A stretch of DNA of 64,000 nucleotides from Perna viridis (taxonomy: Eukaryota), in assembly GCA_037379345.1 (NCBI GenBank), contig CM074518.1:9362001-9426000 (forward strand), read 5' to 3'. The notes under the pieces were generated by a model, which was not told where the DNA came from, ran no database searches, and saw only the letters and a list, made by a program, of their open reading frames with translations. Each line of letters starts with the position of its first letter. The first letter of the stretch is position 1. The position numbers and the translations under genes are program-made. This document shows, piece by piece, positions 3,301 through 54,692 of this stretch.

Positions 3301-6300
3301 AATAGTTAGTCTTTCCATTAATGATAAAAATATGTTGTTTTTTTTACCAGTTATGTATGATTTCTTTCATAGAATGCAATGTTTAAAATCTAAAACAAAA
3401 AACGAATGTACAAATCACGATATGGTCTCGTGGTATGTGAGTTATTAGTTTAGTATATCCTCTGATAACATCAACACAATATATAACCCACTGAAGGCTG
3501 TTCATATTTTATATGTTCCCTTCATTATATTAATTCAAATCTTTAGGGTTTTACATATACAATTGTTTCTGAACTTTTCGTTGTTTTGGGTTTGTAGATC
3601 TGCTCATTGGAAGGCATTAAATGAACGAACTCGTGAGAAAATGAAATTTGACCAATTGCTGGATGGTGAATTCTGGTAAGAACTTAAGTTTTGTTTTTAA
3701 CTGCATTTATTTCTAGTTTATATGAGTATTTATAAGCTTATGGACTGGGGTCAATGAGATAGATCATGCGATTGTCCATACTAGATACATGTATATTGAT
3801 CTATAAATTGTTTTTATTTGAAACAAATGACACATTGAAAGTTATTACAAAAAGCGACAGCAAAGAAAACCCAATATATGAAGCCAAATATAATCTACGT
3901 TTGATAATGTTTACATTATTCGGTATAAATTACTTTGAATACATAACTTGCTCGGTAAAGCACTTTTATTAAAACTTTACTTGATAAATATTTTAATCCC
4001 TGTTCAGTCTGTTTTAATGCCTATTTTACAATGTATAAATAATGAACATATGTTGATAAGGTGTGAAGGAATGATAATATGCAATTAAGTGACGGTCGGC
4101 ACACCATACACATATAGTACTTGTCATTGAATGTTAAGGTTATTTGGAAAGAGTGTAAACTGGCTACAACTAGATTATTTCATATAACATGTTAAAAAAT
4201 TTGAAATATGCCCCACAGTTCAACTTAAAATGGATTCCAGTCTTTGCTAAAAATACTGTGAGCAAGCTCACATATTAAGAGAACACCCACCGCTTCAAAT
4301 GTAGTCAACCCGTCTGTTCACATTTCCCCTTTGCAGTCCCCCCACAATAACTATATTCCTTATTGCATATTTACATATGATGCTTAATCTTCCTATAAAG
4401 TTTCATTAAAATCCCTTGAACGATTAAGGAGGTGTTGCGCTTCCGATAATTTAGAAAGTAAAACCCATAAGTTTGACCATCTCCCTTTGAAAACTCCGAC
4501 AATATTTACAACAATACATATCCCTTCATGTTCATCTATATATATATATCACAAAACCTTCCTACAAAGTTTTATCAAAATCTCTTGAGAGGTTAAGGAG
4601 AAGTTGCGCTTAGAAGAATTGTGGACATAAGGACAGACGGACATATTGACAGACAGACGGGGTGATTTCTATGTTGAAATGCAGTAAAGCGTCTATACAT
4701 TGACAAATGTTATTTTATATTTGTAATGGTAAATAAGTGTAATTTAAATTAAGAAAGGTATCCAGAATATTTCATTCTGAATGGCTGATTTTTAAAATGC
4801 CTAATTTTAGAAACTAAAATTGCGAGAAAATGAATCGAAAATTGGGTTATTATTTTTACCTATTTCCCAGTAAGTGCCTGATAATTTATAAAACAGTGTT
4901 TGGCTGTTAGTTTTTTTTTAATGGCGCTCCTGATTGAATGAAACTCAGTGATACTTTTTTTCAGTTTGTTACCATGGCTTCTGGTGTTTATGACACCATT
5001 CACTCATGCATTTATAAATTACTTGGACCTCCACACATCCGTGATTGGAAAAATGTACCTTTTATGAAAAAAAAACAAACAAACACTAAAACTTCCTGTT
5101 TTAACTGCCTCAAAACAGCTTTATTTCAACAAATTGATACCAGATTTTCAGAATTGACCTAACTGTATTACCTTATAACATGATTGGTGTTGAATCACAA
5201 ACTGTGTAAAATCGACGTTAATGACGTCACATTACCAAATCCAGGTTGTACAAAATAACATAGTTTGGGGAAAATTATTTGATATCAGGTTATTATGCCT
5301 GTCCATTATTAATTTTGTCTTGATCAAAACAGTTGATGAATTATTATGAGTTGACGCGATAAAATTATCCAGGCCAAACGAAACAAGACAGTCTATATTC
5401 ACAATGTTAATTTTTATTACTTACATATTTTGAAAGGATATCATTCAACGACTTCAGAACAGTGTTTACTGAAATGGAGGTATGTCATCTTGGTCCTGAA
5501 AGTTGGAAGATGGAACCAAATCTACAACATCGTGGTGTATGGGCTGCATCTGTAGCTCATAGAAAATGGATTGATGGCTTTAATGCAGGGGGTTGTGTCA
5601 ATCCATGTTAGTATAATTCACAGAGCTTTCTCCTAGATACGTGCATGCTACGAGATTTTCCACAAAAATTGTAACGAAGATATGCTGGTTCATGCAGATC
5701 AAACTAATATGATGTGCCAAATATCAGCTTAAAACTATTACACCACATAAAAAGTATTTTCTCTTGCATGGTAAACAACAAATTCTTTACTTGAGCAATT
5801 ATAGATGGTACGGAAAAATTCAAAGAGGACATAAACACACAAACAAAAAATAAATAAACAAATAAAATCAAAAAATCAAAACGACCAAAGTGTCAAGTTC
5901 CTCAAACTGTTAGGACAATTAAATAATTATGTGTAGTTTAACTCAATATCTTTTCCAAGACAAGAACCATTTAAGCAAGTCATAAACCGTTGAATTTCAG
6001 ACAATTATGTTATTTTTGGAATATTTTCAGGTACTATGTACAATAATACACAATTTTATTTCGAGATAAAAAGACCAATAACTGTTATTCTATCACTTAT
6101 GCAAAAGTACAGACAGACAGACGACCACCGAAAATTTATTTCCTGTTCTTGCCTTATTTATAAGGTACGTCTACTTTTAAGTTAACAGTTTATCAAAACT
6201 AGGAGCTAGTCACCCTGCAATAGAAGTGGTTTCAAATGAGACAAAGTAAAATCAAGGGTAAAATTAGAAGAAACGGATGATCAAACCTGTCCAAAAGTAT

Positions 6301-9300
6301 GTTGGTTTAGAAGATTCTCAAACGTTACTCTGTGATTAAAGTGATTAAAATTGTTAATGTTTTGTTTCGGTAGACTCCGAATTACCACATTTTTGATGGA
6401 TATGTCTATATGTATTTAGAAAAGGAACGGATATAAGTGATAAAATAAATGAATCGACATCCATGCTATCTGAAATATAATCCCTTCCTTTGATTTAATG
6501 ATTAAAACTAAGTAAAGTACAATCCAATTGAAAGAAACAACCAAGATATAAAGGAGAGAAAACCATAGAGAATCTAAACTACCCTATACAAAATGTAACA
6601 GATACAGCCAGAAGATGAATGTCTTCTGCTATAAACGTGAGAAGCACATAATGTAATACACCATCCGAGCTTAAATTCTACAATTGGCGATTGCTCGCAA
6701 TTTAATTCACATTTTCTTTTAAAACAGATCTTTATATCAGTTTTATTTTGTTAACCATAACTATCATTGGATTTAGATACAGAAGAACATTAATACACGA
6801 CTTTGCCCAGAATTCTTCATTGAAAATCAAATATATGCTGCTGCAAGATTTAAACGAATTAGAGAGAATGTACACACACTCCTCCTACCCAACGGAGCAT
6901 ATCTTATCATTCCCATGACTGAGATAGAAGGGCAGGAGGCGAGATTTATGCTTCGATTTTACAGTTCTGGCAATTGTGACATCAGGTTTGTAAGATGTAG
7001 AATATGATCGCTTTTCTAGAAATGCAAAATACACCTTAATCTTCTATAATGATTTTGTTAGCACATTACCCCCTTAAGAATAGTCTTTGGGCATAAAGCG
7101 CAATTCCATTTTTTCTGCTTTATTTATTTTAATGAAAGTCAAAAGATTAATACTCATTAAGGAAGATAATACGTGTCCGATGCTTAAATCTCCTTAACAT
7201 CTCAATGAGATACGTTACTAGTTAAAGTATGTATGATTTGTTGATATGTATGAATAAGGAAACTAATGTAAAGCCACTGTGTGAGGAACAACGTGTGCAA
7301 TTGATATGATTTTAGTTCATTTGAAGCAAGGGATACTATCTTTGTGAACTTTCATCTAGTATTTCTAGACATTTTTACTTATATGATGTAAATTTAATTC
7401 AAATGTTCACTCTCAAAGACGTTCAGAACCAGGATTTTCTCTATCAATAATCTTTGTGGTCACGCAGTGAATATTAAGTTCGAATTATATCTACAAAACT
7501 AGATTTTTTAAAGCGCTCTTTTATCCGTATTTTAGGTGTTATGTTCCATGTTAAAGTCGACCCTTTTGATTCTCTCAATCTAATAATCATCAATCAAAGC
7601 CAAGTTTACATATACAGTATGTCTATTAGAACAATAATACAATTTGTGTATGTAAAAGTCATAGTTGTTGCATCAGTCATGTCGCACAGTTTAGTTCACT
7701 CACTTATTTGTCTATTTCTCTACTGCGTGTATAGATAGATTCATTTTATACTTACACTTTGTCTATGGGTACGAATCTTGTGTATCTATTAACATTCCTA
7801 AATTATTTACTCAGATTAATAACAACAGACATCACGAAGCAAGCTAAAATGGCTACACTTGACCCATGTATCCGTGTGTAAAATATACAGGGTTTGAAGT
7901 AACGATAAATAAATAACATGATAATGTGTCAGTTAACCTATACAATCTTCGTTATGTTTTAAGAGAACTTGATGACAAAGACAAAGTTTTATTTACACCG
8001 GTAAGTCTATCTAATGGTTTACTCGACATCAACTTCTGGAATAAAGCAAGTATTTAACACTTAAACATTATTTTGAAAATATCTTGATTAGTTCAATGAG
8101 AAGTTTTCTGGACTCAATGTTTTTCTTTGATCGCATTCAAGATTTAATGAGAAATGTATTTTATTACCCTATATTTATTAAGAATTAAAAAAAAACCTGC
8201 ATAATGGTCGTCCTCCAAAAATTTAAATTCGGATATATCGATATATTTTTGTTTATGCATTTGTAAGTTTTCTTTGCAATTATTTCCAATAGCAATCCTT
8301 CCGTTAAATGTTATATGTTAATAGTGAAGTACTGACAGTATGTTGGTAGAGTTTCCTTAACCGTGATACTCAGTAATACCGATATTTCTTAGTGCAGTTG
8401 TATCTGTCTACTGTGGTATCTGTCTACTGTTGTATCTTATGCAGTTGTATCTGTTTACTGTTGTATCTGTCTACAGTTGTATCTGTCTACTGTTGTATCT
8501 TAGTGCAGTTGTATCTGTCTACTGTTGTATCTGTCTACTGTTGCACTTCATCTATTAAGTATAGTAAACTGTCTTACGCAATATCACTAGAGAATGTCCT
8601 ATCGTAAATGTTCAATATCGGCAAAATAACGCGGAAGTGTCAGCTGTGGGATAATTCAAATACGTCAGAATTCAAAAACCTGATCTGAATGTGACTACAG
8701 TTAACAAAGTCGATCTATATACAAAGGAAGCGAACTAAATAATATATATTACGCATAAAAACTGAAGATAGGAAAAACTAGACGTCACTCCAAAAAAAGA
8801 AAAAAAAACAAAAACAAAAAAACCAAAAAAAAGAACTAAAGCACTAGCAATACTAAACAAATACTATATGCTTAAGAACACGATTACGATTGATTTACAT
8901 TTATATACCCCCGATATATAAATTGACCTTGTAGCCTACAGCATAGAAATAATACCATGACGCCCATAATGAAATTCTTATTATGATATTCACAATAACT
9001 ATCCTGCAAATTTCGAATTTGCGAAAGTTAGAAGAACATTCTAATCACAGAACCACATTGCTTCTTGAGTCATTAAAAAAGTAAATGGATTTGGATCAGT
9101 GAACATATTGAGTTTAATATTCACAAGGAAAAATAAGTCTTTTATGTATTTACATTGAAGTCTTCCCTATCATGTTGTTCATATATTATTTTTGTTTTGT
9201 TTTATCTATAAGCACAAAATTCAAGATTTACAATCAGTGCTTAAAAGCTAGATCAGAATTATAATACTTTACAAATTAAGTGATGAACACTCAAACTGGC

Positions 9301-12300
9301 AAATGTTCACGTTCCTTAGTACTGCTTTTTTTCGGTTTTGTTTCGGACACGTTGTTTATTCTGTTTTTTTTTAATGCATCATGTATTTCATAAAGTTTGC
9401 TGTTAGGCTAAACAAATAAGACAAAACAAAGTTAAATTGATAACATTTTAAAAAAATATGTTTGATGTAGACTCGATTTAACGCATCAACCTTTATTCTG
9501 TCATTTTATACTTCTATTTTTTGCAGCATTCTCAATCAACAGATGATAAAGTTAATTTACTTAGTCGTCAATTCAGAAACATGGCAATGCACAAGGTATT
9601 GTATCAACTGTAGATTTAAGTTTTCATAACACTAAAGTGTCAACGATTGAGATATGCAGTTAGTGAACTCAAGTGTAATTTTTAACCGTTCGTATTTCAT
9701 TAGTTTGAAGTTTTTTTGGCTTACATTTGTGAACGAGAAAGTAAAACATATTATACCACATGACAGAATTTATTTCCCCGATCTAAAGTACCTAGCAGCG
9801 AACCATTGTCAATATGTCATTGTTTGAGAGGTTCATGGATGTTGAAAACATATCTTTAAAAGACTCAGTAATTATAAATTCGGGTACATAATTGCCTTCA
9901 CTGTAGATTATGCTGAACACGTTAAATTATTTATTTTTGCTTCATTGCTACTTATTTATAGGACAAATGTAATTATTTTCAGTATCAAGAAATAGATGCC
10001 ATAAATTTACAGAGATTATTGTCGACAAATATAAAAGATAAAATTCCACTGCTTTGTTGCTTTGCTGAATCTGAAAGTATGTTTTTATTAATTTTATTCA
10101 TATCGAGTGAAAACGATCATAATATAAATAGTACATGTAACATCAACCATAAACTATGTACACCACCAAAAAGAAAAAAAAACAGAGAGTCATATTTGGA
10201 ACAAAGTTTAGTGAATAGTTAACACATATCACCCTTCTTTAAAAAGAATACTACATATATTGCATGTTATTTTTAATTTGCAATTGAGTTCTGCTAAGCC
10301 TGCAAAATCAGTGAAAACACTGACCTTACAAAATATGAAATATATGTATACATTTACTGTATGTTAAATGCTTGTATTCTAATGGTGAAATGCTTGTTAT
10401 ATACTTACTGAGGATAATTATCATTTGTTTCAGTTGTAAACTTTAAACCCTTGAATTTGTCATCAGAGACGTGTAAAGCTGCAATCACAATTTTTGATGT
10501 ATCCTTATCTTACACATTTTTATACTGCATTTTCCGTTACGCATGTGCATACTTTGGGGTATCCTACCGATTTACTATCTACAGACAGGTCTGGTTTGAA
10601 TTAAGTAAAAGAGGAGTTAATCAAAGTGAAGAGAATTTCTCCCCGTTTTGTTAATGTATTGACGATCAAGGCATAAGTAACCATTTTGTTAAGGATATAT
10701 TAAAGATGCTAAACCATATTAAGTAGATATAATATTTATTGAACTGTTTGAAGGGTACGTATTGACAAGGGAGATATCCACCAAAACATTCTGATTGTAT
10801 TGTGTAAACACCCTGCCAATAAAGAAGTATCAGATAATTTACTTTCGAAATGAAGCATTCCTTTGTATTATATGAAAAATAAGGGGAAACATATATTATT
10901 TCTACAATTTGGAGTTTAAGTCGGTGACAGTCGTCAAGTTTTGTAAATGTAAAATATTCAATACAAGGTAAACCAAACAAAGCTTAGTAGAACAGAAAAA
11001 ACTCGTATCATTTGTTATTAAGATTTAAAACGTTTTTTTGTTGTCACGTAAATAAGAAATACGGCCACAAATGAATGAAATATTAGAAAATGCATGTTGT
11101 TTTCACCAAAACCTTATCAAGAATAGAGCAATGTAGATGGACGACTTCACTTCAGTGAATTTAACAGTTTACTTAGCAGACTTTTACTTTGGCAGGTAAG
11201 CTTAATTGTGATGGATAGTCTCTTAATTTTACTTCTCCAGTAGTTTCTTTCTTTTAAATCTTAATTTCCCATATATCAACATAATTAAAGTACCTTTCAG
11301 AATGTTAAGTGTTTTTATAAATTTTCCCAATATGGTGATCAAAGTGCTTCCTCAAACAAACGGAATCTAGCACAAACTAACTGTATATCTGTATCGTAAT
11401 GATATACTTAGAGGTGGAGTTCTTGAACAAAAACAGAATTTCGTCAAGACCTTTTTAATATCATCCAGAAATTAAATGTTTTCAACCATACACATTTTGG
11501 ACATTTTGATTATCTACTACAATTTTCTTGAGAAAATATACATTTTACATGAATCCCCTCTTTGGAATGACGATTATATCTAAAGTTAAGTAAAGTCTAA
11601 CCTTTGAATGTTAATTTTTGTTTTGTTAAATCTATAAAATCAATATGTACTGACTGATAGAAGAGGTATTAATAAGATATAGAAACAATTAAACAGATTT
11701 CCAATTTTAATCAAGTTCATTGACAGTGAATAAATATGACACACAATAGTTACAAAAAACCACCTTCAATTCTAAGCCTGTTATAAAAATGCACATTCAA
11801 TAGCAGGGCTGTTATTTGATTTATGTGAGGTACCCTGTCATGTTACATTTTGCAGAAGATTTTACTGATTATGTGAAAAGCAGATTCTCTTCAGCTTGTA
11901 TTTCTCCAATCTCTATGATTGATAAAATTTAGTCGTTTATGTAAGCGTGCTAGGTAAGACTCGTATCAAAAATTCAAAAAACATTATACATCGTTGTTTT
12001 TCCAAAAAAGACTGTACACCTAGATACAGATATATAGTTCTTTGTAGAGATTCTTCATACTTTGTAAAAATAATTCCAAATCATCTTCCAAATATACAGA
12101 AGAAGGTAGTTTCAAGATGCTGGAATTTTTTATCGACAACATATTTGTCCAGTGAGATGGACGCGTTTTTCAACAAACGGTTTGCATTCCAAAGGGAACA
12201 AATTGTGCCCCCCTACTTGCCGACCTATTCCTTCACTCTTATAAGGCTGATTTTATAGCTGATCTGATCCGAAAGAAAAAAAACCCAGCTAGATCTTTTG

Positions 12301-14721
12301 ACCTCAGTTTCTGCTATATAGATGACATGTTATCGTTAAACATTCCTGGTTTCGGAAATTTGATACATCGCATATACCCCAAAGAACTTGAGATAATACA
12401 GACACTTTGAAGTCAGCCTCATATATTGATCTACACTTAGGGATCGATGGTAAAGGAAAACTATTGACCAAACTTTACGACAAACATGATGACTTTTCAT
12501 TCAGAATTATCAACTTCCTTTCATCTGTGGCAACATCAGTTCAGCACCTGCGTATGGGGTTTTCATATTACAACTCATACGTTATATCAGAGCTTGCTGT
12601 AACTACGCAGACTTTTTGTATTGCGCTAGACTCCTTACATTAGGCTTCTGGATAGGCTTTTGGAACAAGGTCACGTTGCTGCAAGATTGAAGTTAGCACT
12701 ACAGAAGTTTTATGGTCGTCATCATGAACTCGTGGATCGTTACGGTCTATCGATCTGCACCATGAAAACTGATTTATTCAACGTGGCATAGTTTTCCTTT
12801 CCTCTTTCGTCTACCCTGGACTTGACTTTTAATGAGCAACTCGGCGGGTGTTTCTTAAAAAGCAGAGTATGCTTACCCTACCGGTGCACCTGGTCCATGC
12901 TCCCAGTTTTTAGTGGAGTCCGAGTTGCTCATTTACTTTTGTTACGTTGTATGTATTATCTTAGTTACTTTATGTTCTTTATTGTGTTTGTCTGTTTTCC
13001 ATGTCTGGTCTTTGTCCCTGGATTACATTCTTTTGATTTCCGCTAGAATCTTGGTTTATTTAATTACTCTTGAAAATTAAGCCATCTGGAGTTATACAAT
13101 ATTCAAAATATATTGTATTCTTCAAACTGGCACCCTAGACATTAGTCATTGTTATACTGTACAATCTTATATATTCCTATTTTAATACAAGTACTCATTA
13201 TTTTAACAGAACACGTTTAGGACATTTGCCAAGAGGAATGACAACTTTAGTTCGTATTTGCTTAGGAATGCTTTAAACACAGTCGGTTTGTATTTATATT
13301 TTACTTATTTTTTTCTTATGATCTTGTGGTAAAATAACTTGTAAAATAAAGGAATTGGTGTTCATTTTTGGAACTGTCCGTGAAACAAATCCTTTTAAAT
13401 TATAAACACACTATTATTAGTACCCCCGACATATTCTTGTTAGCTTGCTTTTGGTATTTTGATTTTAATTAAATGTGACTGACCAACTATGTTAATGCCT
13501 ATACCAAATCATAACATTTCCAGTTGTTTCCAACCTTACAGGTGTAACCTGAATTTGGTATTTTTTAAACAGAGTTTCCATCTTTTGACAATTACCTCGG
13601 GGTTTACCTATCATGTTGGTGTTTGTTAGCCTTTTTTTTTTAATCAAATGTTTTTATGTGTAAAACGCACGATCGATCCAATATTGTTTCATTGTATTCA
13701 TACTCGGGTGTCATTACAAAAAATACTGCCAACCAAATACACATAAATTCAAACACTTATTGAAATGAAAGTTATCAAAAACTCCTTTTCTAGGCTTCTT
13801 AGTAAGCAACAAGACATTAGAAACTCTAATAGTACGGTTCTCGACCAACGGAAGAATATCTTTGGACCAGTTCATCTGCATTCTGATAAAACTCTGCAGC
13901 GTTCATTGTGAGTTATAGATGGTTTGAATATTACGAGCAATAAACATATATTTGTGTCGGATTTGCTCTTTGTCTCATATATTGTTATTTTACATAACTA
14001 TATTTATATAGTGGCATACGTAAATAACAAGTTTAAATCGCACAGACAAGTACTTTATTATATATGTGTTTATACCAGTACTGAACCATGCTTAATTTCA
14101 CGTTCTCATACTTTGTACAAGTAAATACAAAAATTAATAAAAAATACATAGATATGGATATACTTGGAAACCAGCTTAACGGAAGAAAAAGTCGAACTAA
14201 TGGTGATGATAAAATTGCATTTAAGACAAAAACATATTAAAGGAACGTGACATACAACATTGCCAGCAACAATCTTGAGTTGAGGAAGTATTCACTTTAC
14301 AATTTAACGTATATAGTTTTGAATAATACAAATAATGAAAATACATGTTTTTTTAAATTATTTTCTCGACAACCTTTAGACACCTACCACCCATCTTTTG
14401 GCGGTGAATGGAAGTCGACATTATCAGAGGTGAGTCGAAATAATCTAACTGCACAACATTTTTTGAACTGATCATTCATTTGCATAACATCCCGAATTAA
14501 CACACAAAAGGATTGAAATAAAAAATCTAACCCATTTTCAATCTTCAGATTTTAAAGTCACCAATGAACACAGCGAAAACAAAACAGAAATGAAAATAAC
14601 AAAAAACCCACACAGCTATGTAAGACGACCCCCATAGTTAAACAAATGCCTTTTAATGCTTACAAAATCATCATTATCGTTGTTTTTTTTTCAGTTACTT
14701 CAAAAAGTGATTTACTCTTGA
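310..14721 (+). CDS. Classical-type calpain (CysPc + CBSW/domain III + penta-EF-hand), 5'-truncated by window edge, catalytic Cys absent
   Basis: 18 GT-AG exons splice into one open frame (1784 nt + 1 nt from the missing upstream exon = 594 aa + TGA): 310-489, 759-831, 1210-1378, 2216-2299, 2500-2585, 3598-3675, 5437-5606, 6031-6164, 6777-6985, 7964-8000, 9527-9595, 9983-10076, 10434-10498, 11127-11195, 13210-13285, 13794-13907, 14380-14429, 14695-14721. Calpain motifs: [104 protein letters not shown], C-terminal LLQKVIYS*. Confidence 0.93.
1697..2043 (-). mobile_element. Penelope-like (Naiad-type) element, 3' end fragment
   Basis: Reverse complement matches the RT C-terminus and 3' UTR of the 11965-13070 copy (ATGAGCAACTCG...AGTTGCTC arms, CCCTGGGTTACATTC). 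Confidence 0.8.
2563..3214 (+). repeat. ~31-32 bp minisatellite (~12 copies) made from calpain exon end plus its 5' splice site, split by a PLE fragment
   Basis: Unit approx. GGAAAGGGCGTGGAACCAAAG|GTTTGxxxxx. The first copy is the exonic WKGAWNQ + donor (2586). GT recurs at 2617, 2649, 2679, 2987, 3019, 3051, 3083, 3114, 3146, 3177, 3209. Confidence 0.85.
2683..2956 (+). mobile_element. Penelope-like element 3' UTR fragment inserted in the splice-donor minisatellite
   Basis: GGACTTGACT..ATGAGCAACTCGGCGGGTG...GAGTTGCT...GTCCCTGGATTACA...TTACTCT, colinear with 12800-13070. Confidence 0.85.
4190..4672 (+). mobile_element. Non-autonomous HINE/pearl-like DNA element remnant
   Basis: Two related internal blocks (AAGTTTCATTAAAATCCCTTGAACGATTAAGGAGGTGTTGCGC / AAGTTTTATCAAAATCTCTTGAGAGGTTAAGGAGAAGTTGCGC) followed by a GGAC/AGAC microsatellite near the end. 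Boundaries approximate. Confidence 0.5.
8392..8545. repeat. 16-bp minisatellite (GTTGTATCTGTCTACT-like, ~9 copies)
   Basis: Directly visible tandem units in calpain intron 8001-9526; accounts for ORF 8392..8607. Confidence 0.9.
10499..11126 (+). other. U12-type (minor spliceosome) GT-AG intron in the calpain PEF region
   Basis: 5' splice site GTATCCTT (10499-10506). Branch-like CCTTAT at 11112-11117, ending 7 nt before the AG (11125-11126), with no polypyrimidine tract. Splicing joins ...AAITIFD to [12 protein letters not shown] and completes an EF-hand loop. Confidence 0.85.
11965..13070 (+). mobile_element. Penelope-like (Naiad-type) retroelement, decayed RT + 3' UTR, 5'-truncated
   Basis: Frameshifted RT: IPxGTNCAPLLADLFLHSY, YIDD (12315-12326), IYPKELEI, ASYIDL, TKLYDKHDDFSF, SQLIRY-like, KFYGRHHELVDRY. 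The ORF ends after the thumb with no C-terminal GIY-YIG, as in permuted-domain PLEs. Clade assignment is from recalled motifs. Confidence 0.8.
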
Positions 14722-14835
14722 GGAAAAGTAAATTATCCAGATGTCTGAAAAAATCAGAGAAATTAGAGGCATGTTATAATTCCATGTTGGGGATTAGGAA
14801 CACAAGAAAGAGACACTATATAATACTTCAGTATG

Positions 14836-14841
14836 AATAAA
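14836..14841 (+). terminator. Candidate polyadenylation signal of the calpain gene
   Basis: AATAAA about 115 nt after the TGA stop; such hexamers are frequent in AT-rich DNA. Confidence 0.45.
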
Positions 14842-14954
14842 GCCTTAAAAAATCTGCTGACTGGCCCTGTTTATTTGATATTGTAGTATTGACAGAAAAA
14901 ACCTCTATTTAATAAGAAACCATTTGCCTTTAAAATTTGAAATCACATCTTGTA

Positions 14955-15690
14955 GATTCTAGCACTGTGAGCTATTTACAAAACTTGTCGTCTGTCGTCG
15001 TCTGCCGTCGTTATTTTTTAAAAATATTCTGTTGATTATGGGCAAATTTGGTTACCATCATTATTTAAGTATGTTCTTCGAAAATTTTGTGAAATATGGC
15101 CGTTATTGCTATTTTAAGACCAAAGGGGTCAAGTTGCCGATTTCTACATAAATATCAAAAACTTTAAGAGATACTGAAAAAAAAATTAATCGTCTACTTC
15201 TTCTGCTTGGTGAGTCTGCATATGGTCGACTCCTTGTTATAGGTATTGCCCTGGGAAAGCGAAAATAGCACTTTTGCAGTACTTAGACAATATTGGGTCA
15301 AAACTGTACGACGATTTTTTGTTAGTGTTACTGCTTGTGAAAGATGATAAAGTGACGTTTTGTGTTCAATTTTCAGTCAATATCTTGAAAACCATAATAG
15401 ACAGTAAACATCACTTTCAATACTTGAGATATAAGCCCACCAAAAGTCTTGATTCAAAGCTTTAGATCGACTTCTTGTTATAGTTATTGTCCTTGAAATG
15501 TTAACAATTACTTTTTATGCAGATTGTAGCCTATATCTAGAAAATTTTATACATAGTAGATAGAAAAAAAACTTTCAATTTTTGAAATAATTTGTGCGAT
15601 AGAGGCTACTAAAGTATCCATTGAATTGTTGTCATTGAAAGGCGAAAAATGAACCTGGGGAGCGATTCTGGCCCCTTGGAGCTTCTAGTT
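14955..15690 (-). mobile_element. HINE/pearl-like non-autonomous element
   Basis: Reverse-strand terminus AACTAGAAGCTCCAAGGGGCCAGAATCGCTCCCCAGG resembles the termini at 24713 and 30222. GTCGTCTGTCGTCG microsatellite plus GTGAGCTA at the other end. Confidence 0.6.
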
Positions 15691-19798: not shown

Positions 19799-20847
19799 CT
19801 GAAACATAAAAAAGAGAGGACATTGATACGTTCAGATATATTTACGAATGCCATACGAAAAAAAAAACGAAACAAAAACACAATATTTTTACATTCATAT
19901 CGAACAAAATAACAGCGACGGCACATTATATACCGCATGAAAGGGCAAATGAATTATTTTCCATGAATATGTAAAGCATAAGATAAGCATAAGCAAAAGA
20001 TGTTGAGCAGAAAAAAAATTAAAAATTGGTAAGTCTGATTAAAAGTCTCTTAAATATTATTTACTTGGGGACAAATTATTGTTGAACAATAGACTTTATG
20101 TGTACTGGGGTTTAATAGTGGGATGTAGAAATGTAATGTTCGACCATTGTTTACAACATTTTGCGGGTTACAGCAACATTTAACCACTTTCTATTTTGAT
20201 TTGTTTTCTAAAGGAACATGCTATTCTTTTGTAATATTTCAGGGAACTGATGTGGCAAATGTTGCTACCTACCTTTGTAACATTTCAGGGAACTGATGTG
20301 ACAAATGTTACTACCTACCTTTGCAACATTTCAGGGCACTGATGTGACAAATGTTGCTACCTACTTTTGTACTTCACGGAACCGATGTGACAAATGTTGC
20401 TATCTACCTTCGTAATATTTCAGGAGCTAATGTGGCAAATGTTGCTACCTTACTTCGTCATATATCAGGGAACTGGCAAATGTTGCTACCCACCTTTGTA
20501 TTTCAGGGAACTGATGCGACAAATTGTGCTACCTACTTTTGCAACATTTCAGGGCACTGATGTGATAAATGTTGCTACCTACCTTCGTAATATTTCAGGA
20601 TCTAATGTTGCTACCTACCTTAGTAATATTTCGGGAGCTGATGAGGCAAATGTTGCTACCTACCTTTGCAACATTTCAGGGAACTGATGTGGCAAATGTT
20701 GCTACCTACCTTCGTAATATTTCAGGGAACTGATGTGACAAATGTTGCTACCTACCTTTGTAACATTTCAGGGAACTGGTGTGACAAATGTCGCTACCTA
20801 CCTTTGTAACATTTCAGGGAACTGATGTGACAAATGTTGCTACCTAC
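19799..20847 (-). other. Probable 3' UTR intron of the tetraspanin
   Basis: TAA AG|GTAGGT donor 2 nt after the stop codon. Strong acceptor TCCTCTCTTTTTTATGTTTCAG ending at 19799. Confidence 0.6.
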
Positions 20848-20850
20848 CTT
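20228..20850. repeat. 46-bp minisatellite (~14 copies) abutting the tetraspanin stop codon
   Basis: GCTACCTACC recurs at 20701, 20747, 20793, 20839 (period 46). The unit on the gene strand begins AAAG|GTAGGTAGCAACATTTGTCACATCAGTTCCCTGAAATGTTAC. Confidence 0.95.
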
Positions 20851-23800
20851 TAACCCTGCATATCTCTAAGTGCACAACATAAAATCATTGAAAACAGCAT
20901 TCCAATAATCTGTAAGTAGAGTTCATAATCAGTAAGTTTCATAAATAAGGAAAAAAGTCAACCATCTTTATATGCAAAACATGTTCGAAAGAAGGCAGTT
21001 TAATTTGTTGTGAAAATTCAAATAAAAATTATATGAAATTTAATTTTGGTTTATTAACCACCACTTATATGTTCTTAAAGTACCGGCACCGGTCTCCAAT
21101 CATAGATTATTTACTACACAACTTTGGAAAGCTTGTCACGATAAAATAATATTTTAATTTCAGCAAAACAATCAATATATTCCAATGTATTTTACAAGCA
21201 ATTAACCTTACTCACTTATTTATAAGCACTGTTAATATATAATTTCTGATACTAACAGTATTCAGTGGTGGTAAAAAGTCTCCCTTGGCAAACAGATATG
21301 GTAATTCAATTATGGTGTTTACTGCGGCAAGACACATTTTATGGAATTTTTAAGTTCTAATTGAAATAGCTACAATCAATACCTCAATGTACTTATACCA
21401 ATGCTTTTTTTTTCATGTGCTTTTACATTGTAAAGGTTCTTTCAATTATCACATTCTATCTGGTGAAGCAGGAATCCATTGGCTTGGTTATATATACAAT
21501 ATGCAAGTTATCTCCTTCTGCCTCAAGATTTTGAACGTATGAATTACAGTATACTAGTACTATCATCACACACAAAAGTTACAAACCTTGATACATGAAC
21601 AGAATTAGTTTATTTATTTGTTTATTGGTCACAATTAATTCGATACTCACGAGAATAAGAGCTATTCCAAATAGTACACCAGCAACTAACACCATTTTAC
21701 TCTCAATCCATGAAGTAAATGCTTCAGTGCAACCCTAAAATATAAATTAATTTACAAGTAATCATATCTTATATTAATAATTTATAGTAACAGTTAAGTG
21801 TGATATATATATATATATATATATATGGATCTGAAAAATTCCCAACGATGTTAGAACTGTCAAATTTGCGATGCAAATTTTTGGTCGTTCCCTCCGCGGG
21901 ACTCGAACTCGTACCGCTGTGACATCTATTGCAACACCGCCTGTACAAAGTTCATCGCCCTAGACCACTCGACCAGCAAGGCAACATAAAAATACAGCTT
22001 TCGCTGGCCGGGTCATTCCTCCTCGTAGGATTAATCTAAGGCTGTAACTTAGTACACGATGTATGGTAGTACGGGACAGTTCATCTAGGTGTTATCATGT
22101 AGGATAGAGGATAAAATTAATTAATTGCAAGTCACAACAAATCAATATTATACAAATGTCTCAAAATGTGACGACTATAGTCGCTACACTGCTCCATCAG
22201 ATCAAATTGATACAGGGAAGATAATGTAAACGTATAGAAAGGTCTGAAAAATTCCCAACGATGTTAGAAAGAACATCATTCATTCACATTGTTGAAATCA
22301 AAGTTTATTTTCAGATCTTCGCACCTACATGTGGACAAATTTGAAAATGGGATACAATATCAAAAAATAAAATACATGCGCAGCTCATTAATTAAAGGAT
22401 ATCCCACTCCCCATCCCAGAAATCATTTTGTTAGAATATAAACAAAATTGTCAAACCAAAAGTTTGGTGACGCTCGATCTTAAAATTGAAAACAGTGTTG
22501 TACGCCTCTATCAAAATATCAAGTGGCTGTGAAAAGTAAGGTCGACGAATATTCTGCATCAGGGAAAAAACGAAGTCAAAAGGTCCACATTTGCATCATG
22601 TGATAAACAAGAAAGTTTCATGGAAATTCATTCAGCGGTTTCGGAGAAGTCGTGGATGGGAATATAGTCGAAGGACATGACCAAGTCCATGTCTTGCATC
22701 ATAAAACCCCAAAGTCGTTAAGATAGAAATACAAAACAAGAGACGCTCAAAGGCATTGTGAGATGAAGAAGTTTCACTGAATTTCATTTAGTGGTTTCGG
22801 GGATGATGGTCCTGTCTTGGTCGACTAATGACACAGAACATTGTACATGTTTTGCGAAAGGGAACCCCTTAGTCTAAATTATGAATTCCTTAAATATGAG
22901 TTTACAGTGTCGGTATGCTGTGAATGAGATTTTTGTTTGATACTGAGACCTAGGGATAGCGGTAATATGTTTAACTTTTTTGAAAAACAGATTTTCGTGG
23001 TTTTATCATGTAGACAATTGAATAATCTACTGCATGATACCATATCTGAGACATTTTGGTTGAGGAATAATTTATTTAGGAATTTATTCGGCTGTTTAGA
23101 GGAAAATTGAAAATCCCATTTTTTTGCAATGATTTTTTATTATTTCTGACTGAAATGGCCACATGACATTAAAAAACCCAGAAGTGTCAATTGTAATAAT
23201 ACTAAACAGAAAATACCAGATAAGTCATTAAAAGACATAGACGCTCGAACAATTGAGTCACAAAAATCTTGGCCTTTTGCGTCATAGGAGTACAAATATA
23301 GGCTTATACTGAAAAAGGATTCCGAGAATATTCTTTGGCGACAAACTGATTCGGAAATGGGAGGCATAAAGGTATCTGAAAATTATAATGATCTTGATGA
23401 GTAACAGGGTGGACTAAAAAGTTGCCACGTTAAATATGTCTGCGAGCGACGACAATGCCGTGTTATGTATGAACGAATCATTTTTAATTATTAGTTAATC
23501 ATTACGTTCAACGACAGTTACTTCATGCCTGTCGGTAGGAGAACATTTAAGAAATTAGGCATATCATGTTTTGTACGTTTCCTAGTTATAAGAAGTAGTC
23601 TATATATATAAATCAGACAGGAGGTGATTCATACATGTCAAAGACCCACCAAATTTACATTTATTTCTTATTCAGTACCGGTCACACAAAACCGGTCTAA
23701 GTTTGTTATATAGTTCCTTCACTTTTTTGAGTGCCATTTTGAATTCAATTTGATTTGGTTGATTTTAGTGGGAGATCAATGTGTGGTTTTCTCAAAAGAA

Positions 23801-26175
23801 CATATCTAAGTACAGAAAGGACTATTGTTATTCATAAATATAATTTATGTATACCAACAAAACATCATTTACTCTGTGTTTTTGTACACTATGAATCACC
23901 TCGACCTACATTAGGCAGTGTCTGAATTTGTATATGGACTGGTACTTAATACAAGTAAGCTTACTTCATCGTCCTTACCGTTACTGAGAGTTCGACATAG
24001 AACAAGCGATTATCTGTCTGCCAACAGGCCAATGGACAGAGAACAAGGGTTTATCTGTCTGCCAACAGGCCAATGGACAGAGAACAAGGGTTTATCTGTC
24101 TGCCAACAGGCCAATGGACAGAGAACAAGGGTTTATCTGTCTGCCAACAGGCCAATGGACAGAGAACAAGCGATTATCTGTCTGCCAACAGGCCAATGGA
24201 CAGAACAAGCGTTTATCGAAGTCTGTCAACAGACCAATGAGGCGGTAAACCAATATAACTTATAATATTACTCACTTTAGTGTCGGAGATCACGCTTGCT
24301 ATTTTGCAATTCATTTGCTGAAAACATAATTTGCTAAGGGATTCGTAGTCCATCGCTCCATCAGCTCCACAGCAATGAAACTAGAAGGTGAAAAACAAAT
24401 ACATAAATGTCTATGTACCGATCTGCATTGTAAATTGCCCATAAACCTTCTAAAAGGACAGTTTTTTTTAAGTTGATCCGCCGTTTACAAAAAAAAATGT
24501 CTTATGAAATAACTCATGAATGGTGATAGCAGATTAAGGCACCATAAGGATGGACAGGCTGGGCATTTAAAAAAATAATAAAATTATTCTGAAGTTTGTA
24601 AAAAAACATACTCAACTACAGATAAAAAATAATTCAATATTCCCTCATTACTTAACACGTAGACTTTCAAATACACATTTTAACTCTGACTGCATGCGAC
24701 TAAGAAACTATAACTTGAGGCTCTAATGAGTCTGAATAGCTCACCTGACTTTAAAAGCAAAATTTGACTTTTTATAATAGTAGCCATTTTTTTTCTTGGA
24801 TAAAATTTCCTAACGCTCATACAAGGAGTAATCATATCATTTTTCACTAAATTATGTGCAGTAGTTTCCGAGGAGAATTTTGTTTAAAGTAATAACATTA
24901 AATGTAGGTAAAAACACTGAAAAAGGGCAATATTTCCAACATGGCTTAACAGATTCACACACAAAAAAGGCAGCACAGAAAGTCTCATTATGCTGAACAC
25001 ATTTATCCCCACGTCAGAATTTGTCTAAACCTAACGTTACGATTTGGAGATGTATATGCAAAAAACTTTTGTCTGACCCCTATTTTCTATTTTTTAGTAA
25101 CGACGGTCATGTTTTTCGACGGCTAAAAAATCCCCTCATCAGTTCTATGCAGCACCACTCTATGAAACATTCATACCAAGTATTCCAAATTGACCCAGTT
25201 GTTTAAGAGAAGAGTTTTGAGAGTTAAGAAAAATTCATAAGTTTGGTTCTAATTGGTCTGGTAGTGTCACAAGATTTTTGAATGAAATAACAAGAAAAAT
25301 AGCGGAAAAAACGCTGAAAACGGGCAATAACGCCAGCAAGGATTCACAGACTTGTTGACCACTGATAGATCTCATCATGCAGTACACTTTTATCCTTGTG
25401 TCAGACGACCGACAACGCCAAGTGATAGCAGTAGCTCACATATATTGCACGCCGTATTTATATCTATTCCACTTAAAAGATATCTTATACAATTTTCTAT
25501 TTTTGAAATATTATAAGATATATCATATATTGTACAGTTAACAAGATATCATATTACATATATGAGATATATGATAAAGTGTATATCAAGATATCTTATA
25601 AAGTTCATGATATATCTTCCATCTTGTAAAGTAAAAAATAACTTGTAAGATATCCCATATCTTTTATAACATCTCATAATCTTTATAAACTATCTCAAAA
25701 GACTTTATAAGCTATCTTATAACTTTTATTAGATATCTTATAAAGTACAAGAGACATCTTGAACATGGAATACTAGTAAATAGGTAGTGCACAATGCAAG
25801 TATGTAATAAAGATTCTGTGAAAGTTAAATTTCATGTACGTGTGTAGTATGAGTAATGGAAAGGAGACGAACTGATATAAGGGTTTAAGTCTTGTTAGTG
25901 AATCCTGTCATTAATTTGCAATGATAGTTCATTTTATTCTATTGTTTTGGCTTGATGTGAAATTATGAAAATTACTTCATAAACATGTTTAAACAAAATC
26001 AATACTTTTAATTCATAGAAACTTGGAATAATCCTTCATGACCATTCCTCAGCCTTTAAAGGGATTTTGGCAGAAATACATAGGTTGATAGATATTTACA
26101 TAAAAAATCTTAATCAGCCTGTTTGCTAAAACCCATTGGGCAGGTTTCTTTTCAGGATGTCTAATCTGATTCAAT

Positions 26176-26224: not shown

Positions 26225-29200
26225 GTTGTTATCAAACCTCATCCAAAAGTTTACACTGCAGTTATGTCGTTGCAGATGAACAAATTAAGTAGCACTCCAG
26301 ATAAGAATCATGCAAAAATGGGATTCAATGTTGGGAAGCCTACATATTTTCATTTCTGGTATTGTGTTTAAAATGCTATAGTAAGTGGCTTTTCATATAA
26401 CCCTTGTTCTTATTTTTAGAAGATAAACATTACAAAGAATGTAATGTAGAATTAAAAACTAAGGGTGATAACTCTTTAAATTACACTGAAATACAAGAGA
26501 AACTATTGGATTCCCAAGTGAAATTATCTCCTAAGAACAGACAGATTGGAATGAATGAATATAATTTCATTATACAGACCCATAAAACAACTTGATATCA
26601 ATAAAACCTGTTAACAATAAAAAAATAAGTAGCCTTTTTCAAGGTGTATCACATTTTAGAGAATTTGCATGATTCTTACAAAGACAGCTACTTTTAAAAG
26701 TTTCAAAAACTATGTTCACATGCAAGAAGTTCGACAAGATTGGTGGTCTATACAGATCCATAGTCATCTCCCGAAATTATGCAAGATTATCAACGGAAAT
26801 TTTGAGGATCCGAGTGAACGTATATTAACATTTGACCATAGTAAAAAAAAGTATAAACCATATACATGTACCTGAAACAGAATTTATAATTTGATATCAT
26901 TTATTTATTTATTTTTTAATCTGTTTTTTTTTATAATTGAAATCCAAGTTTTAAATTACGGAATTTCTATATTTCAAATTTTAAATACAAGTACATCAAA
27001 AACTAATCCTACAAAATGTAATAGGTCTACAAATATAAACCCCATATCTGGGATATACATGTATGATGCCCATGATTCAATATACACATAAATCTTTCCC
27101 ACCCAACTGAAAATAACCAGTAGGTGGTATCAACTCTTTTATTTAGATAATCTATTTTCAAGTTACTATAATTGGTAATTAAATAATCTTAGTATGCGCA
27201 TACTTTCAGAGGAGACGTCTTTAAAATGGAAAATCGGAAATCTGCATCATACTGGACCGTTCAATGTCATTCTTATTTCTCTTGAGTTTTAGCCAAAAAT
27301 AATATGTCTGTTTCCTGCTACCCTACCTACCCTAAACATTTTGGCTCAAGCACTAATAAAGTCTAGATGTTTTTTAATCAAATTATCTCCATACCTAACT
27401 ACCCTTTCTTTACTTGCTAGTAACAATAGACACGACAATTGTTTTTGCCTCATCATTGCACCATACTTACTTTTTCTTGTATTATTTTCATCAGATTAGT
27501 GGCACTTTCGTCATAGTCACAGGATTTTTTCACTTTCTCCTTGAAGACTTTGTGCACAACATCTCTAAACTGTAATACATACAAGGTAATTTGTTTTCGT
27601 TATGCAAATTTAATTAAGAATCTATAGGGCATAATTAATGTTGAGTACTCAACAGCCAAGATTTTTATCCAAGTCGACCATATTCATAGACAGATCCAAC
27701 GGGAGATCCGGGCCCCATTATAAAATAGATTTTTTTTTTAAAAGTTAAATATTTATGTAACATCATTTAAAAATAACTAGAAAGTGATATATAATTCAAT
27801 AATAATCAATGGTCATTAAGCATTACGTTATCAACACAAGTGAAATCTATATTTTTGCATGGATTTTCGCATTTTCTTGAGAAAAATATCTAAAGCCTGG
27901 ATAAAGCCCTCTGTTTTGTAAACTACATTATTACCTAATTATAAGGTTTTATCTTGTTTATTAAATATACACACATTTTTCTCTATTTTCAAAATTTATT
28001 CAGGACATGGCGATCTATTCCTATTCCTGGTCTCTTTGACATATTCCCCATTATTTTCCATTCTTTATTATATCTCATAGACAAATTAGGTAATAAAACA
28101 GTTATCAAATGGGTTGGCCTCGTGCAATAGAACACTTGATCATTCTCAGAACCTCAGGACAAATATTCTGGTCTATTGCATCCAACCCATTTAATAATTG
28201 TATAGTATTGCACGTTTTAGTGCAATAAAATGATGTATAACTTGTTTTTTTAATGAGGAACATGAGGATTATTTCAGGATTATTTTTCATGGTTGTATGC
28301 AAAAACAGGTCCTTAGGGTACAAACACATGAATCTGCGAACTGCTGTGATATAAAAAAAAAATACTTTTAATTTTAGGGACTATGCATAATTATTTTCAT
28401 GCTCATTTGTAATTCCTTTTGCTTATAGCATTCAATATCTACTGAAGAACTTCTTTTAACAAGTACTCCGATGAACCAAGTTACCAACTGCAGTTTTACA
28501 ACCTATTATAAGGTTCTTCCAACTTTCAATGCATGAATTCCAACAACTTGTCCCGATCGTGTAAGTATGTCGAACAATTACATGAGCTATATTCCTCGCC
28601 CAATGAATTATTTAGGTAGTGTATGAAGAAAAAACACTTACCCCATCTTTTGCCACAATCATATAGATAGCAACACCTAGCAGGGCTACAAATATCACAA
28701 AAAGGCAGGCAAAAAACTGAAAAAAATCAAGGTATATGAGTAAGATATATATTTACTATACTGATTTGTTTCAGGGTTGTAGTACATGTATGTACAGTAA
28801 CTGTAGAATTAGGGTATATATAATGGTCTACCTGTTAGTGGTTAGAAAACTCACATAATTCTAAAACTATTATAACAGTTCATGTCTCTTAGTAGCGAAA
28901 AAAATTATGAGTACCTATTTTTCTTCATTCCTGCACTAGGTCCATATTCTATAAGTTGCACTATCTTCAGGTTTCATTTGTGTAATAAAACGTAACTCAA
29001 ACCAATCCAGTAATTCTTGTTTTCCTCAGTGTTATTCATGTTGCCTTGTGCGATTTTTTGTTATTTTTGTTTGCCTCTTGTGAGTTCTAACCGTGGATTT
29101 CAGTCACAGTTACGGAAAATTGACAAGATATATAAAATATACTAAATGAAAACTGTATTTTTATAAAGCGTAGTTAGTCTAGAGTGTTTGACTCGGTGCA

Positions 29201-29370
29201 GGCGGATTTGCCATAGATATTGGAGCAGAGAATGCAATTGGGTTCGAATCCCGCTGAAGGAGCGTCGCAAAATTGCAGTCTTGAATCGATTTAATAGTAG
29301 TTATGATGTACCTTAGACTTGTATATATATACGTCTTAGAATGTGACGACTCCATTCACTACACTGATAC

Positions 29371-29411
<41 letters not shown>

Positions 29412-42570: not shown

Positions 42571-42852
42571 GAATGATGTGAATGACTCGGCCAGCGAAAG
42601 CTATATTTTTATATAGCCTAGCTGACCGAGTGGTCTAGGGCGCTGGACTTAGTGCAGGCGGTGTTGCCATAGATGTCACAGCAGTAAGAGTTCGAGTCTC
42701 CGGGAACGACAAAAATTTGCTTCGCAAAAGTGACAGTTCTAACATCGTTGGGAATTTTTCAGACTCTTCTATAAGTTTACGTTATCTTCCCTGTATCAAT
42801 TTGATCCGGTGGAGCAGTGTAGCGAATAGAGTCGTCACATTCTGAGACGTTG
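42571..42852 (+). mobile_element. tRNA-Leu-like-head element flanked by (TA)n on both sides
   Basis: A box TGACCGAGTGG (42623-42633) followed by TCTAGGGCGCTGGACTTAG, B box GTTCGAGTC (42690-42698). TA tracts at ~42555-42570 and 42853-42872. Homologous to 21827-22269. Confidence 0.75.
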
Positions 42853-44319
42853 TATATATATATATATATATACTCTGCAAGTTATAATAACGACATTAAT
42901 TACATGTCAATTAACCTTATTCGTGATAACGCAAGCTTATTGGTCAGTAGTGTAACTAAAAAAAAAAACACCCATAATCTTCGAATAGAGTTAATTTTAA
43001 CAAAAAAGTTATCATGCGATTTTTTACCACAGACCAAACATTGACAGTCAATTAGCATAGATTCCATATAAATAATAAGAACTCAGCGTCTTTTTAAAAT
43101 AAGCCACTCACCTAGTTTGAATGGTTGACGATAGGAACAAAATAGATCTGGCGAAACGCAACAAATGGACCTTAGTGCACTAACCTAAACCCTGAGTAGA
43201 CAAGTCTTTCCTACGACAAATGTAGACACATATTGTCTCGAAAATATAAGTACTAAAATCAACGCCATAAACAGAACGATGACAAATCTTCAAATCAAAC
43301 CTATTGTAATATACAACATATCATGACTGTCGACAGATGCCTATAAACTTGTTTAATAAGGCCTTTACCATTCCCTTTTGTATGAACTGAAACAACAAAC
43401 AAATACACTATACAAATTATACAATTTACTAAATTACAGATAAAATATTAAACAACAATAATAATAAAATCATATAAATCACGATTTATGCCCGCCTTCT
43501 TGGACAGATTGTAACTCTAGCTCTAGGGCTTAAACCACAAAAATACACAAAATGTTACCGAAATATTTTCTTTGTTATCATGTAAATGCATTTTTAATAA
43601 TGTGAACTTTAAGTTGGGTTTACTAATATAGCAGTTTATTCATTGCTTGTTTGACTGTACCACGATAGGATTTCCTCTTTTTTTTTATTTTACTGGTATT
43701 CTAGGTTTTCGAGTATCCAAAGCGTTTGTTTGTACTACATATACATGTAACCTTTTGTATTATCAAAATTATGTAAACCTACAAGTCCATTAGCAAGAAG
43801 ACTAATATTGAGCAAGGGAAACCTGAATATTTGATTTGTACTAGGTATCAGAGACAAAACGATGCTCCATCTGGTAGCAAAATGCTTAAGAAATAAGGGA
43901 TTGTATTGACGATTGATATAAATTGAGTATGTATCTAATTAGAAATTGATCAGTGGTAAGATGTGGATAGGTCTTAAATTTATTTATATAAACAACCATT
44001 TTCATCTGAATTCGCCCCATATATTCAGGAGTTAGCTGCAGGTGTATAATCATTGTTCTAAAAATCTACAAATTTTACATTTTTTATAATGTTGGTCATT
44101 TGCATTTTAATATGACAGAACTTGATGACGTATTGCTATCGGAGGTGAACGTAGAAAATCCTAGTAGTAATAAAACCACATTCTCTGAAGAATAGCTAGT
44201 GGACAACCATAGATCTGTTTTATCCTCATTTAGTCTCCACTAAAATCAATGATTGTAATCTACCATCCATATACTGGATTTTATAATCTCAACAAGAATC
44301 CATACAAACAATGTTTCAT

Positions 44320-45524
44320 AGCAAAATATACTGACAAGCTTGTTTCGAAACTTCTAACCTAACAGCTGTCAAAGAAGGTCTTCATACCACAAAACCTTTT
44401 ACCGCCGTAGTGATATCAATTCAATGTGTATCCTGAAAATTTCCAAAGATCCTCTGGAAACCCCTAATGCTTGATTGTCATCATAATATAATAGCACCAA
44501 TATCTTTGATTTTTCAAACATTTATACTCATTTAAATTCCGATTAAAAACATTATGCATCGTTGTTACTCAAAAAAGAACGATAAACTTAAGTACATATA
44601 TGCAGTACTTGGAAAGGATTCCACAAATCATCTTCCAAGTAAACCGAAGGTGTTGCCAAAATTCTGGATTTTTTTTTATCGACACAAAACTTGTATAGTG
44701 GACGCGATTTTCAACAGACGGTCGGCATTCCGGATGGGAACAAATTGTTCTCCGCCTTTTGCTGACCTTACCTTCAATCTGATCTTATACAAAAGGAGGA
44801 ACATAGGTAAGCTAAGTTGTTGTATCTCAATTTCTGCAATATAAATGGCGTATTGTCTTTACTTAATGCTAGTTTTGGGGATACAATACAATTCTTCAAA
44901 GAGCTTGATATTAAGGACAGACACTATGTAGTCACCATAATGTCAGCCTCATGACCTACACTTAGGGATCAATGAAATAGGAAAACCAACGACTAAACAA
45001 TGCGTCAAAAACAGTGACTTCTCATTCCGTATGGTCAATTTTCCTTCAATCTGTGCCAAAAACCATCCAGCAATTGCGTGTAGAGTTTCGTATCACAACT
45101 CATACATTATGCTAAAGTTTGCCAAAACTACGGGAAAGTTTTGAACCGTGCTAGGCTTCTACAAATAGTTTTCTTTACAAGATTGTTGCTACAATGTTAA
45201 AGTCATCAAACAGAAGTCGTGGATAAATATATTTATTTGCACCATAAGAACTGATTTGTTAACCATGTAATAGTTTTTATCTAACGTCTAATCTTAAAAC
45301 TCAGCTCGTGTTTCTAGAAAAGCAGAGGACGCATACTTACCGTTGCACCTTATCCTTGCTTCTATTTGTTAAGGATTACGGGTTGCTCTTTCAATTTTTT
45401 TTCTTTTTACGTGTTATTTTTGTTGTTTCATGTTCAAAGTGTGTGTCGGTTTTCCTTGTCATGTATTCATCCTTGGAATAGATTCTTTTGATTGCTGCTC
45501 GAGTCTTTGTTCTCTTGATTACTC
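44320..45524 (+). mobile_element. Penelope-like (Naiad-type) element, decayed RT + 3' UTR
   Basis: ILKISKD, FDFSN.YT (RT motif A), GIxMGTNCSPPFADL, MVNFP, SQLIHYAK, and 3' terminus GATTACTCT. Confidence 0.75.
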
Positions 45525-54344: not shown

Positions 54345-54692
54345 AATGACAAACGGTCGACATTCCAATGGGAACAAATTATGCTCTTCTACTTCCTGAA
54401 CTATTCCTTTACTCTTATGATGCTTACTTTATAGCTGATCTGATCCAAAAGAAAGAACATCATTTAGTTAGATCTTTTAATCTCAGTTTCCGCTGTATAG
54501 ATGACGTATTTTGGGGATCTGATATATCGCGTCTACTCCAAATAACTTGAGATAAAGGATACTACAGACACTGTGAAGTCAGTCTCATATCTTGATCTAC
54601 AGTTAGAGACCGATGGTAAAGGAAAACTATTTACCAAACTTTACGACAAACGTGATGACTTTTCATTCAGAATTGTCAAGTTTCTTCTCATT
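54345..54692 (+). mobile_element. Penelope-like RT core fragment
   Basis: IPMGTNYALLLPELFLYSYDAYFIADLIQKKEHHLVRSFNLSFRCIDD...SYLDL...TKLYDKRDDFSFRIV. Confidence 0.85.

Follow-up and report, generated by a model that had tools for sequence, protein, structure and literature searches.

The window analysed here is a 64-kb stretch (64,000 nucleotides) of the Perna viridis genome. It contains two copies of a non-coding repeat with a tRNA-Leu-like head (family A), an old copy of a sister family (B), and a separate short piece of A (Table 1). The first copy is made up of a 413-bp unit and a further 27 bp that exactly repeat part of it, and it adjoins (TA)12, as originally predicted. The 27 bp do not represent a terminal repeat of set length, however, as the redundancy ranges from 41 to 457 bp across the 61 family A copies that exceed one unit by at least 40 bp. 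The second copy has the same blocks from a different start point, in agreement with the permutation that had been described for it. In contrast, the stretch at 29148-29370, which had been read as a permuted copy with its own inversion, is a B copy and a separate, opposite-strand A 3' end, which sit tail to tail inside one TA tract. The window also contains minisatellites at 20228-20851 (46-bp period), 23994-24239 (41 bp) and 2962-3214 (32 bp).

Table 1. Features of families A and B in the 64-kb window.
Feature	Position	Strand	Remarks
Family A copy	21830..22269	-	440 bp; 93% to consensus; 5'-truncated partial tandem, stops at 3' site 1
27-bp redundancy	21830..21856	-	Same letters as 22243-22269; length varies among copies
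(TA)12 tract	21803..21826	.	Target, at 3' end of the 21830-22269 copy
Predicted three-way RNA junction 1	22193..22267	-	PLE-only covariance model E 0.034; also matched by descriptor
Predicted junction 2	22105..22184	-	Covariance model E 3.1; weakened by mutations in this copy
Predicted panhandle	21957..22042	-	Present in the consensus folds of both A and B; compensatory changes
CGAAAGCT motif	21996-22003	-	Inside predicted panhandle
T5 run	21988..21992	-	Directly before head; candidate Pol III terminator and unit boundary
tRNA-Leu-like head	21883..21982	-	A and B boxes present; cloverleaf degenerate
A box	21965-21975	-	One change relative to family consensus
B box	21899-21910	-	In tRNA-Leu-like head
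Second family A copy	42580..42861	+	Unit positions 248 to 123; 92% to consensus; 3' site 2 on (TA)n
Predicted junction 1 of second A copy	42739-42813	+	Covariance model E 0.003
Old sister-family-B copy	29145..29331	+	Head to first 3' site of B; 71% to B consensus
Short family A 3' end	29331..29372	-	Unit positions 72-113; tail to tail with B copy
(TA)18	29373-29408	.	Adjoins 5' side of the short A piece

Family A has a unit consensus of 409 nt, on which unit positions are numbered in the orientation of the tRNA-like head. Thirty-two aligned full units diverge from this consensus by 1.5-8.1%, and at least 40 copies are identical across 81 bp of the head; the family is therefore young. A sample of 80 segments of 10 kb, placed at round coordinates (780 kb after removal of N, from an assembly of 723 Mb), yielded eight A insertions at ≥85% identity and three B-like heads, which extrapolates to approximately 7,000 A insertions genome-wide (about 3,000-15,000 as a Poisson range). 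The 465-nt unit of family B is likewise tandem and aligns with A over its whole length.

Plotting the starts and ends of copies on the monomer, a check that accompanied the original prediction, revealed scattered 5' ends and two 3' sites. The map was drawn from 307 fragments in the examined loci, from which 18 B heads were removed to give 289 A fragments; the samples chosen with A queries are structurally biased, the first toward long copies. Site 1 (mode at position 37) terminates 86 fragments and site 2 (mode at 119) another 96, such that the two sites, 83 nt apart, account for 182 of the 289. (TA)3 directly follows 142 of these 182 fragments, in comparison to 13 of the remaining 107. Similarly, in loci independent of A queries, 53 of 95 ends are at the two sites, where 13.7% are expected (p 7e-22). 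The 5' ends occur in all tenths of the unit, with hot spots of 5' ends and inversion junctions at, for instance, positions 296-301 (16/289) and 395-400 (19/289). Among the 182 properly ended copies, 70 are longer than one unit (up to 864 bp), 87 have an inverted piece on their 5' side, and 107 reach more than 15 nt upstream beyond the head, while 37 start near the head and have the appearance of a plain SINE. A repeat in the flanks was found in only one of 64 isolated copies and was of the TA type, although TA targets can mask short TSDs. Family A thus displays 5'-truncated partial tandems, inverted 5' pieces and an optional tail bounded by two 3' ends. This is the same pattern that the consulted portion of PMC8557442 describes for insertions of EN+ Penelope-like elements (PLEs), namely partial tandems, an inverted 5' copy and an optional tail.

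Family A is not, among the sampled PLE families, the pseudo-LTR (pLTR) of an autonomous element, which had been put forward as an alternative identity for the monomer: none of 113 5' flanks has a set PLE sequence joined to A at a constant junction, and the 3' UTRs of the examined PLE loci are unlike A. The flanks that A copies do have in common (within the same 113) are mostly 3' ends of the PLE family N4, described below, joined at positions that vary, as a common target would produce. At two loci (L259 4530-5148 and L284 1102-1680), the second 3' end of N4 is fused to A position 16 with no TA tract between them, and either a template switch or an insertion at the priming site would explain these fusions.

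The A and B boxes of the family A head align with the tRNA-Leu genes of the same genome; the boxes are kept and the cloverleaf is lost. The internal tRNA-Leu-like boxes that had been proposed are located within the first copy, and ARAGORN returned nothing on the window. Judged from these motifs, it is plausible that A is driven by Pol III. In both A and B, a predicted fold pairs the A-box region with the 60 nt that precede the head, with compensatory changes, and the CGAAAGCT motif that had been singled out as half of a minimal hammerhead falls in this predicted panhandle. Both families also have a T5 run 5-10 nt before the head. This presumed unit boundary coincides with the highest peak of 5' ends (positions 278-283), with 25 of 289 ends in 6 nt relative to a mean of 4.2, and to 1 and 3 at TA-rich control sites. 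Length variants at the boundary T5 were observed in 50 of 149 copies, compared to 13 of 234 at the other T5 run of A, which is within junction 1 (positions 19-23) and would have to be read through by Pol III. However, the boundary T5 sits in a TA-rich hairpin and length is variable at an A5 run as well, and slippage together with microhomology to the target could also yield the 5'-end peak and the spread of lengths. Linkage across the boundary is not clearly below that elsewhere in the unit. Together, the T5 before the head, the 5'-end peak and the covarying predicted panhandle suggest a unit-length Pol III RNA and template jumps.

Penelope-like reverse transcriptases are the closest mobile relatives of telomerase. 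Searches of the genome with GIY-YIG and other protein queries identified several PLE families that have a reverse transcriptase, a C-terminal GIY-YIG domain and a CxxxxCxxC linker. Two of these, N3 and N4, appear to be Neptune-like based on their domain order and Zn-finger-like linker, and Nematis is a possible alternative assignment. Their stop-free frames are 897 and 843 amino acids, respectively, and neither is surely intact. In both, hammerhead cores precede the 3' end by 80-100 nt, and copies of each are about 95-96% alike, which makes them similar in age to A. Both also terminate at two sites: 18 and 29 of 56 N3 ends are at sites 88 nt apart (37/47 on TA), and 19 and 13 of 40 N4 ends are at sites separated by 83 nt, as in A (19/32 on TA). 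Further Neptune-like families (L092, L095, L096, L104 and L236), for which only the first 3' end is in view, have minimal hammerheads with a palindromic stem III and a first 3' end on (TA)n. Within the window, 50070-50457 (+) matches N3 at 75%, over the endonuclease end and the 3' UTR.

A three-way RNA junction is predicted around each 3' end of A, B, N3 and N4, with the end placed in its large loop. The layout of the junction comprises stem P1, UU or UC, stem P2 (whose loop includes AGAC and a run rich in UA), UGY, a hairpin that begins AUC and finishes GAU, and a single C before P1 closes; the letters differ between the four families and the pairing is retained. In the first window copy, the large loop of predicted junction 1 contains AGAC and 3' site 1, and the loop of predicted junction 2 contains site 2. 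A descriptor of this layout, drawn by eye from these very sequences, matches A twice, exactly at the mapped ends, as well as the B consensus once, N3 at end 1, and N4 at ends 1 and 2. Of 500 shuffled A sequences, two had one match and none had two. If one mismatch is allowed, a second junction of B emerges with a long P1, as in the second junction of N4, while the second junction of N3 is seen only as two separate pieces. By the descriptor, junction 2 is complete in the A consensus and in 74 matches across the examined loci.

Because the descriptor was drawn by eye, a covariance model was trained exclusively on six N3 and N4 first junctions and used to search 82 kb. The best nine of its 17 matches are N4, A or B junctions (E 6e-7 to 0.11), whereas the background starts at E 1.9; two mutated A junctions are at approximately E 3, and the first junction of B was missed in the 82 kb. 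The top two matches in the window are the two A copies. In an alignment of 11 junctions (one partial), which was fitted to the structure and so leans toward the model, 13 of 18 pairs have changed on both sides and 97.7% of cells are paired, more than in all shuffles and slid controls. In contrast, the letter likeness of the tails is weak (A and N3, p 0.027; A and N4, p 0.21), and a better match to the PLE tails exists elsewhere on the A circle; thus, a relative outside the sample may be the actual partner. Similarly, an end-only weight matrix ranked the ends of A 1st-2nd and 4th-5th of 818, which is not significant relative to shuffles, and a matrix made from N1/N2/N5/N6-type PLE ends alone (with one left block mis-set) did not pick the ends of A or B. 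The 3' signal of A therefore seems to be common to autonomous PLEs in predicted structure, and weakly so in letters, and an N3/N4-type enzyme probably reads the predicted junction as an RNA signal. The retrieved text of PMC11167929 reports that the enzyme of an anole Poseidon PLE initiates reverse transcription internally, at two positions within a stem loop, that this accounts for the tail of the element, and that hammerhead cleavage is not needed. With this direct precedent, the two predicted loops of A may, by analogy, be priming sites.

Since the predicted fold at the end sites is common to A and to coding PLEs, A likely borrows a PLE enzyme. We consider it likely that this non-coding, tRNA-Leu-headed repeat is copied by a Neptune-like reverse transcriptase/endonuclease that probably recognises the twin predicted junctions. 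The original prediction of a PLE-mobilised, non-autonomous element is thus supported by the end pattern and the predicted junction in common, with N3 and N4 as candidate partners. The PLE protein would nick (TA)n and initiate cDNA synthesis internally on the RNA, in one or the other loop, as demonstrated in vitro for the anole Poseidon element, and priming in this way would result in the two 3' ends that are observed in A, B, N3 and N4. Synthesis then breaks off at any position, and the resulting copies frequently bear an inverted 5' piece and have no TSD. The template is less certain. A unit-length Pol III RNA could start at the head and stop at the T5 that precedes the following head, with its ends paired in the panhandle, and the enzyme could jump from the 5' end onto a 3' end, either within one molecule or between two; we give this part of the scheme slightly less than an even chance. 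Such end-to-end jumps would generate copies that cross the unit boundary and look permuted. Neither self-cleavage nor a covalent circle would be needed for A.

The main competing account retains the same PLE partner and is credible, if not the one we favour: the template would be a multi-unit read-through RNA of partial-tandem donors, transcribed either by leaky Pol III or by Pol II, the latter using a flanking promoter or one of pLTR type, with the head as a passive or accessory relic. Unprocessed multimeric RNA is the main substrate of the anole PLE according to the retrieved text of PMC11167929, each A unit has two T5 runs, and units of one insertion are mostly of the same lineage, with 273 of 322 diagnostic sites in agreement where 193 are expected. 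However, read-through leaves unexplained both the peak of 5' ends with its spread of lengths at the head boundary and the compensatory panhandle of A and B, and tandems copied in this way would be expected to shrink over generations unless regenerated. A retrozyme-like covalent circle, in which the unit RNA is ligated and reverse-transcribed by rolling circle, appears unlikely. Permutation is seamless, the longest copies reach 864 bp, paired ends would suit a ligase, and the consulted part of PMC7229834 documents circles of 350-390 nt in a mussel. In addition, units of the same insertion differ by 5.2%, compared to 6.7% for random copies, and have 32 rare variants in common versus 4.6 expected. 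Nevertheless, the other 49 of the 322 diagnostic sites disagree, and several long A copies are chimeric, switching between two sub-lineages (haplotypes), which is impossible from one circle. One template that is re-read, with some switching between molecules, fits these data; a strict single circle does not.

A ribozyme for such a circle was likewise not found. An intact hammerhead core (CTGANGA) is absent from both strands of the A circle, as had been noted from the first copy, and no core is present within one mismatch; the closest is two changes from the consensus and has no stem II. Around the CGAAAGCT motif, family B has a core one change off the hammerhead consensus just upstream, also without stem II, and the hammerhead half in the panhandle is possibly a dead remnant of a PLE hammerhead. 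Scans against Rfam, another of the checks first suggested, returned no match worth the name. An HDV-like antisense fold, tried by eye only, was rejected as the required P1/P1.1 pairing was not found, and G-U pairs favour the sense strand over this fold. The proposal of a circular RNA or retrozyme intermediate is therefore unsupported. Two other accounts change the enzyme. Naiad PLEs dominate bivalve genomes, lack hammerheads and prefer (TA)n according to the consulted portion of PMC8557442, and are far commoner than N3 and N4 in this genome as well (35 Naiad 3' ends in 780 kb). Only one of these 35 ends touches (TA)3, however, the Naiad 3' end sequence differs, and no Naiad end was matched in the junction scan of all examined loci; Naiad was thus rejected as the partner of A and is a very improbable mobiliser. 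An ordinary tRNA SINE mobilised by a LINE, with a (TA)n tail and with tandems as chance neighbours, would account for the head and for the 37 copies that begin near it. It is refuted by the end maps, and we attach almost no weight to it: the two 3' ends are internal, 107 copies pass the head upstream, 70 exceed one unit, 5' inversions are many, and TSDs are essentially absent. A fixed 5' end at the head with TSDs, the feature by which an ordinary SINE was to be recognised, is accordingly not what was found.

Several elements of this scheme are already known from the sources consulted, in the parts retrieved: non-autonomous PLE passengers, retrozymes, and the Pol III-driven tandem Sm-alpha. Chlamys MRC1-type non-autonomous PLEs are similar to A in being non-coding and forming partial and head-to-tail tandems at microsatellite targets with a partner-matching 3' signal (PMC8557442, as excerpted), although A differs in its tRNA-derived head and in a signal that matches by predicted fold and hardly by letters. 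Animal non-LTR retrozymes likewise have a tandem unit of ~400 nt and are non-autonomous and PLE-related (PMC7229834; bioRxiv 10.64898/2026.07.22.740005; both as excerpted). They are defined there by a type I hammerhead per unit, which the core search and Rfam did not find in A; because it has no hammerhead, A falls outside the retrozymes. The schistosome Sm-alpha and Sj-alpha repeats also have a Pol III-type promoter inside tandem SINE-like units, but with an active hammerhead, and the retrieved part of PMC6765202 names no PLE partner or common priming structure. The pLTR/tail of Neptune-type EN+ PLEs and the Poseidon PAc element are alike in having two internal reverse transcription starts, an optional tail, AT-rich targets and inverted 5' pieces (PMC11167929, in part). 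In comparison, A has no ORF and a tail of 83 nt rather than 30-40, and its start sites are in a twin predicted three-way junction with a UA-rich loop rather than in an AC-rich stem loop. Mollusc tRNA SINEs (MESC, V and CORE) have a tRNA-derived head with A and B boxes, but differ in their constant 5' heads, TSDs and LINE partners, and neither Penelope nor permutation is mentioned in the retrieved part of PMC4758252. Since A has neither a constant 5' end at the head nor a TSD, it falls outside the SINEs.

We tentatively suggest that A may represent a SINE of the Penelope class, in which a ribozyme-free Pol III unit RNA would have panhandle-clamped ends and undergo template jumps, and in which the twin predicted three-way junction would be the recognition and priming signal of a Neptune-type reverse transcriptase. 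A literature search found no published description of A or of the junction; prior annotation is possible in Repbase, Dfam and supplements, which were outside its scope. If the scheme is true, then tRNA-headed passengers can use PLEs without a ribozyme. The predicted junction offers a testable handle on how PLEs choose their RNA and on how tails and partial tandems originate: a covarying fold of 70-100 nt at both start sites, in two autonomous families and two passengers, is a defined RNA for mutation, and A is a short natural template for (TA)n-directed insertion. An in vitro PLE system was called for in PMC8557442 and one was supplied for the Poseidon element in PMC11167929, in the parts consulted.

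Additional observations were made at individual loci. Naiad-type PLE fragments, with an N-terminal GIY-YIG domain, are present in the window at 11977-13071, 44142-45525, 54349-54691, 59495-60251 and 62300-62728, together with shorter pieces. At G000:C12:17.76-17.77 Mb (L312-L319), four repeats with a ~4.1-kb period each contain an inverted pair of A 3' ends, which is due to local amplification after insertion. At L123 8372-8583, a head segment (about positions 280-360) occurs three times head to tail, and two of these restart at the presumed unit boundary, which looks like repeated template jumps. Finally, a long tandem array of tRNA-Leu genes with a ~1.1-kb period is present at G000:C6:6.63-6.71 Mb (L354-L358); it contains two kinds of gene in opposite orientation, one of which bears an intron.
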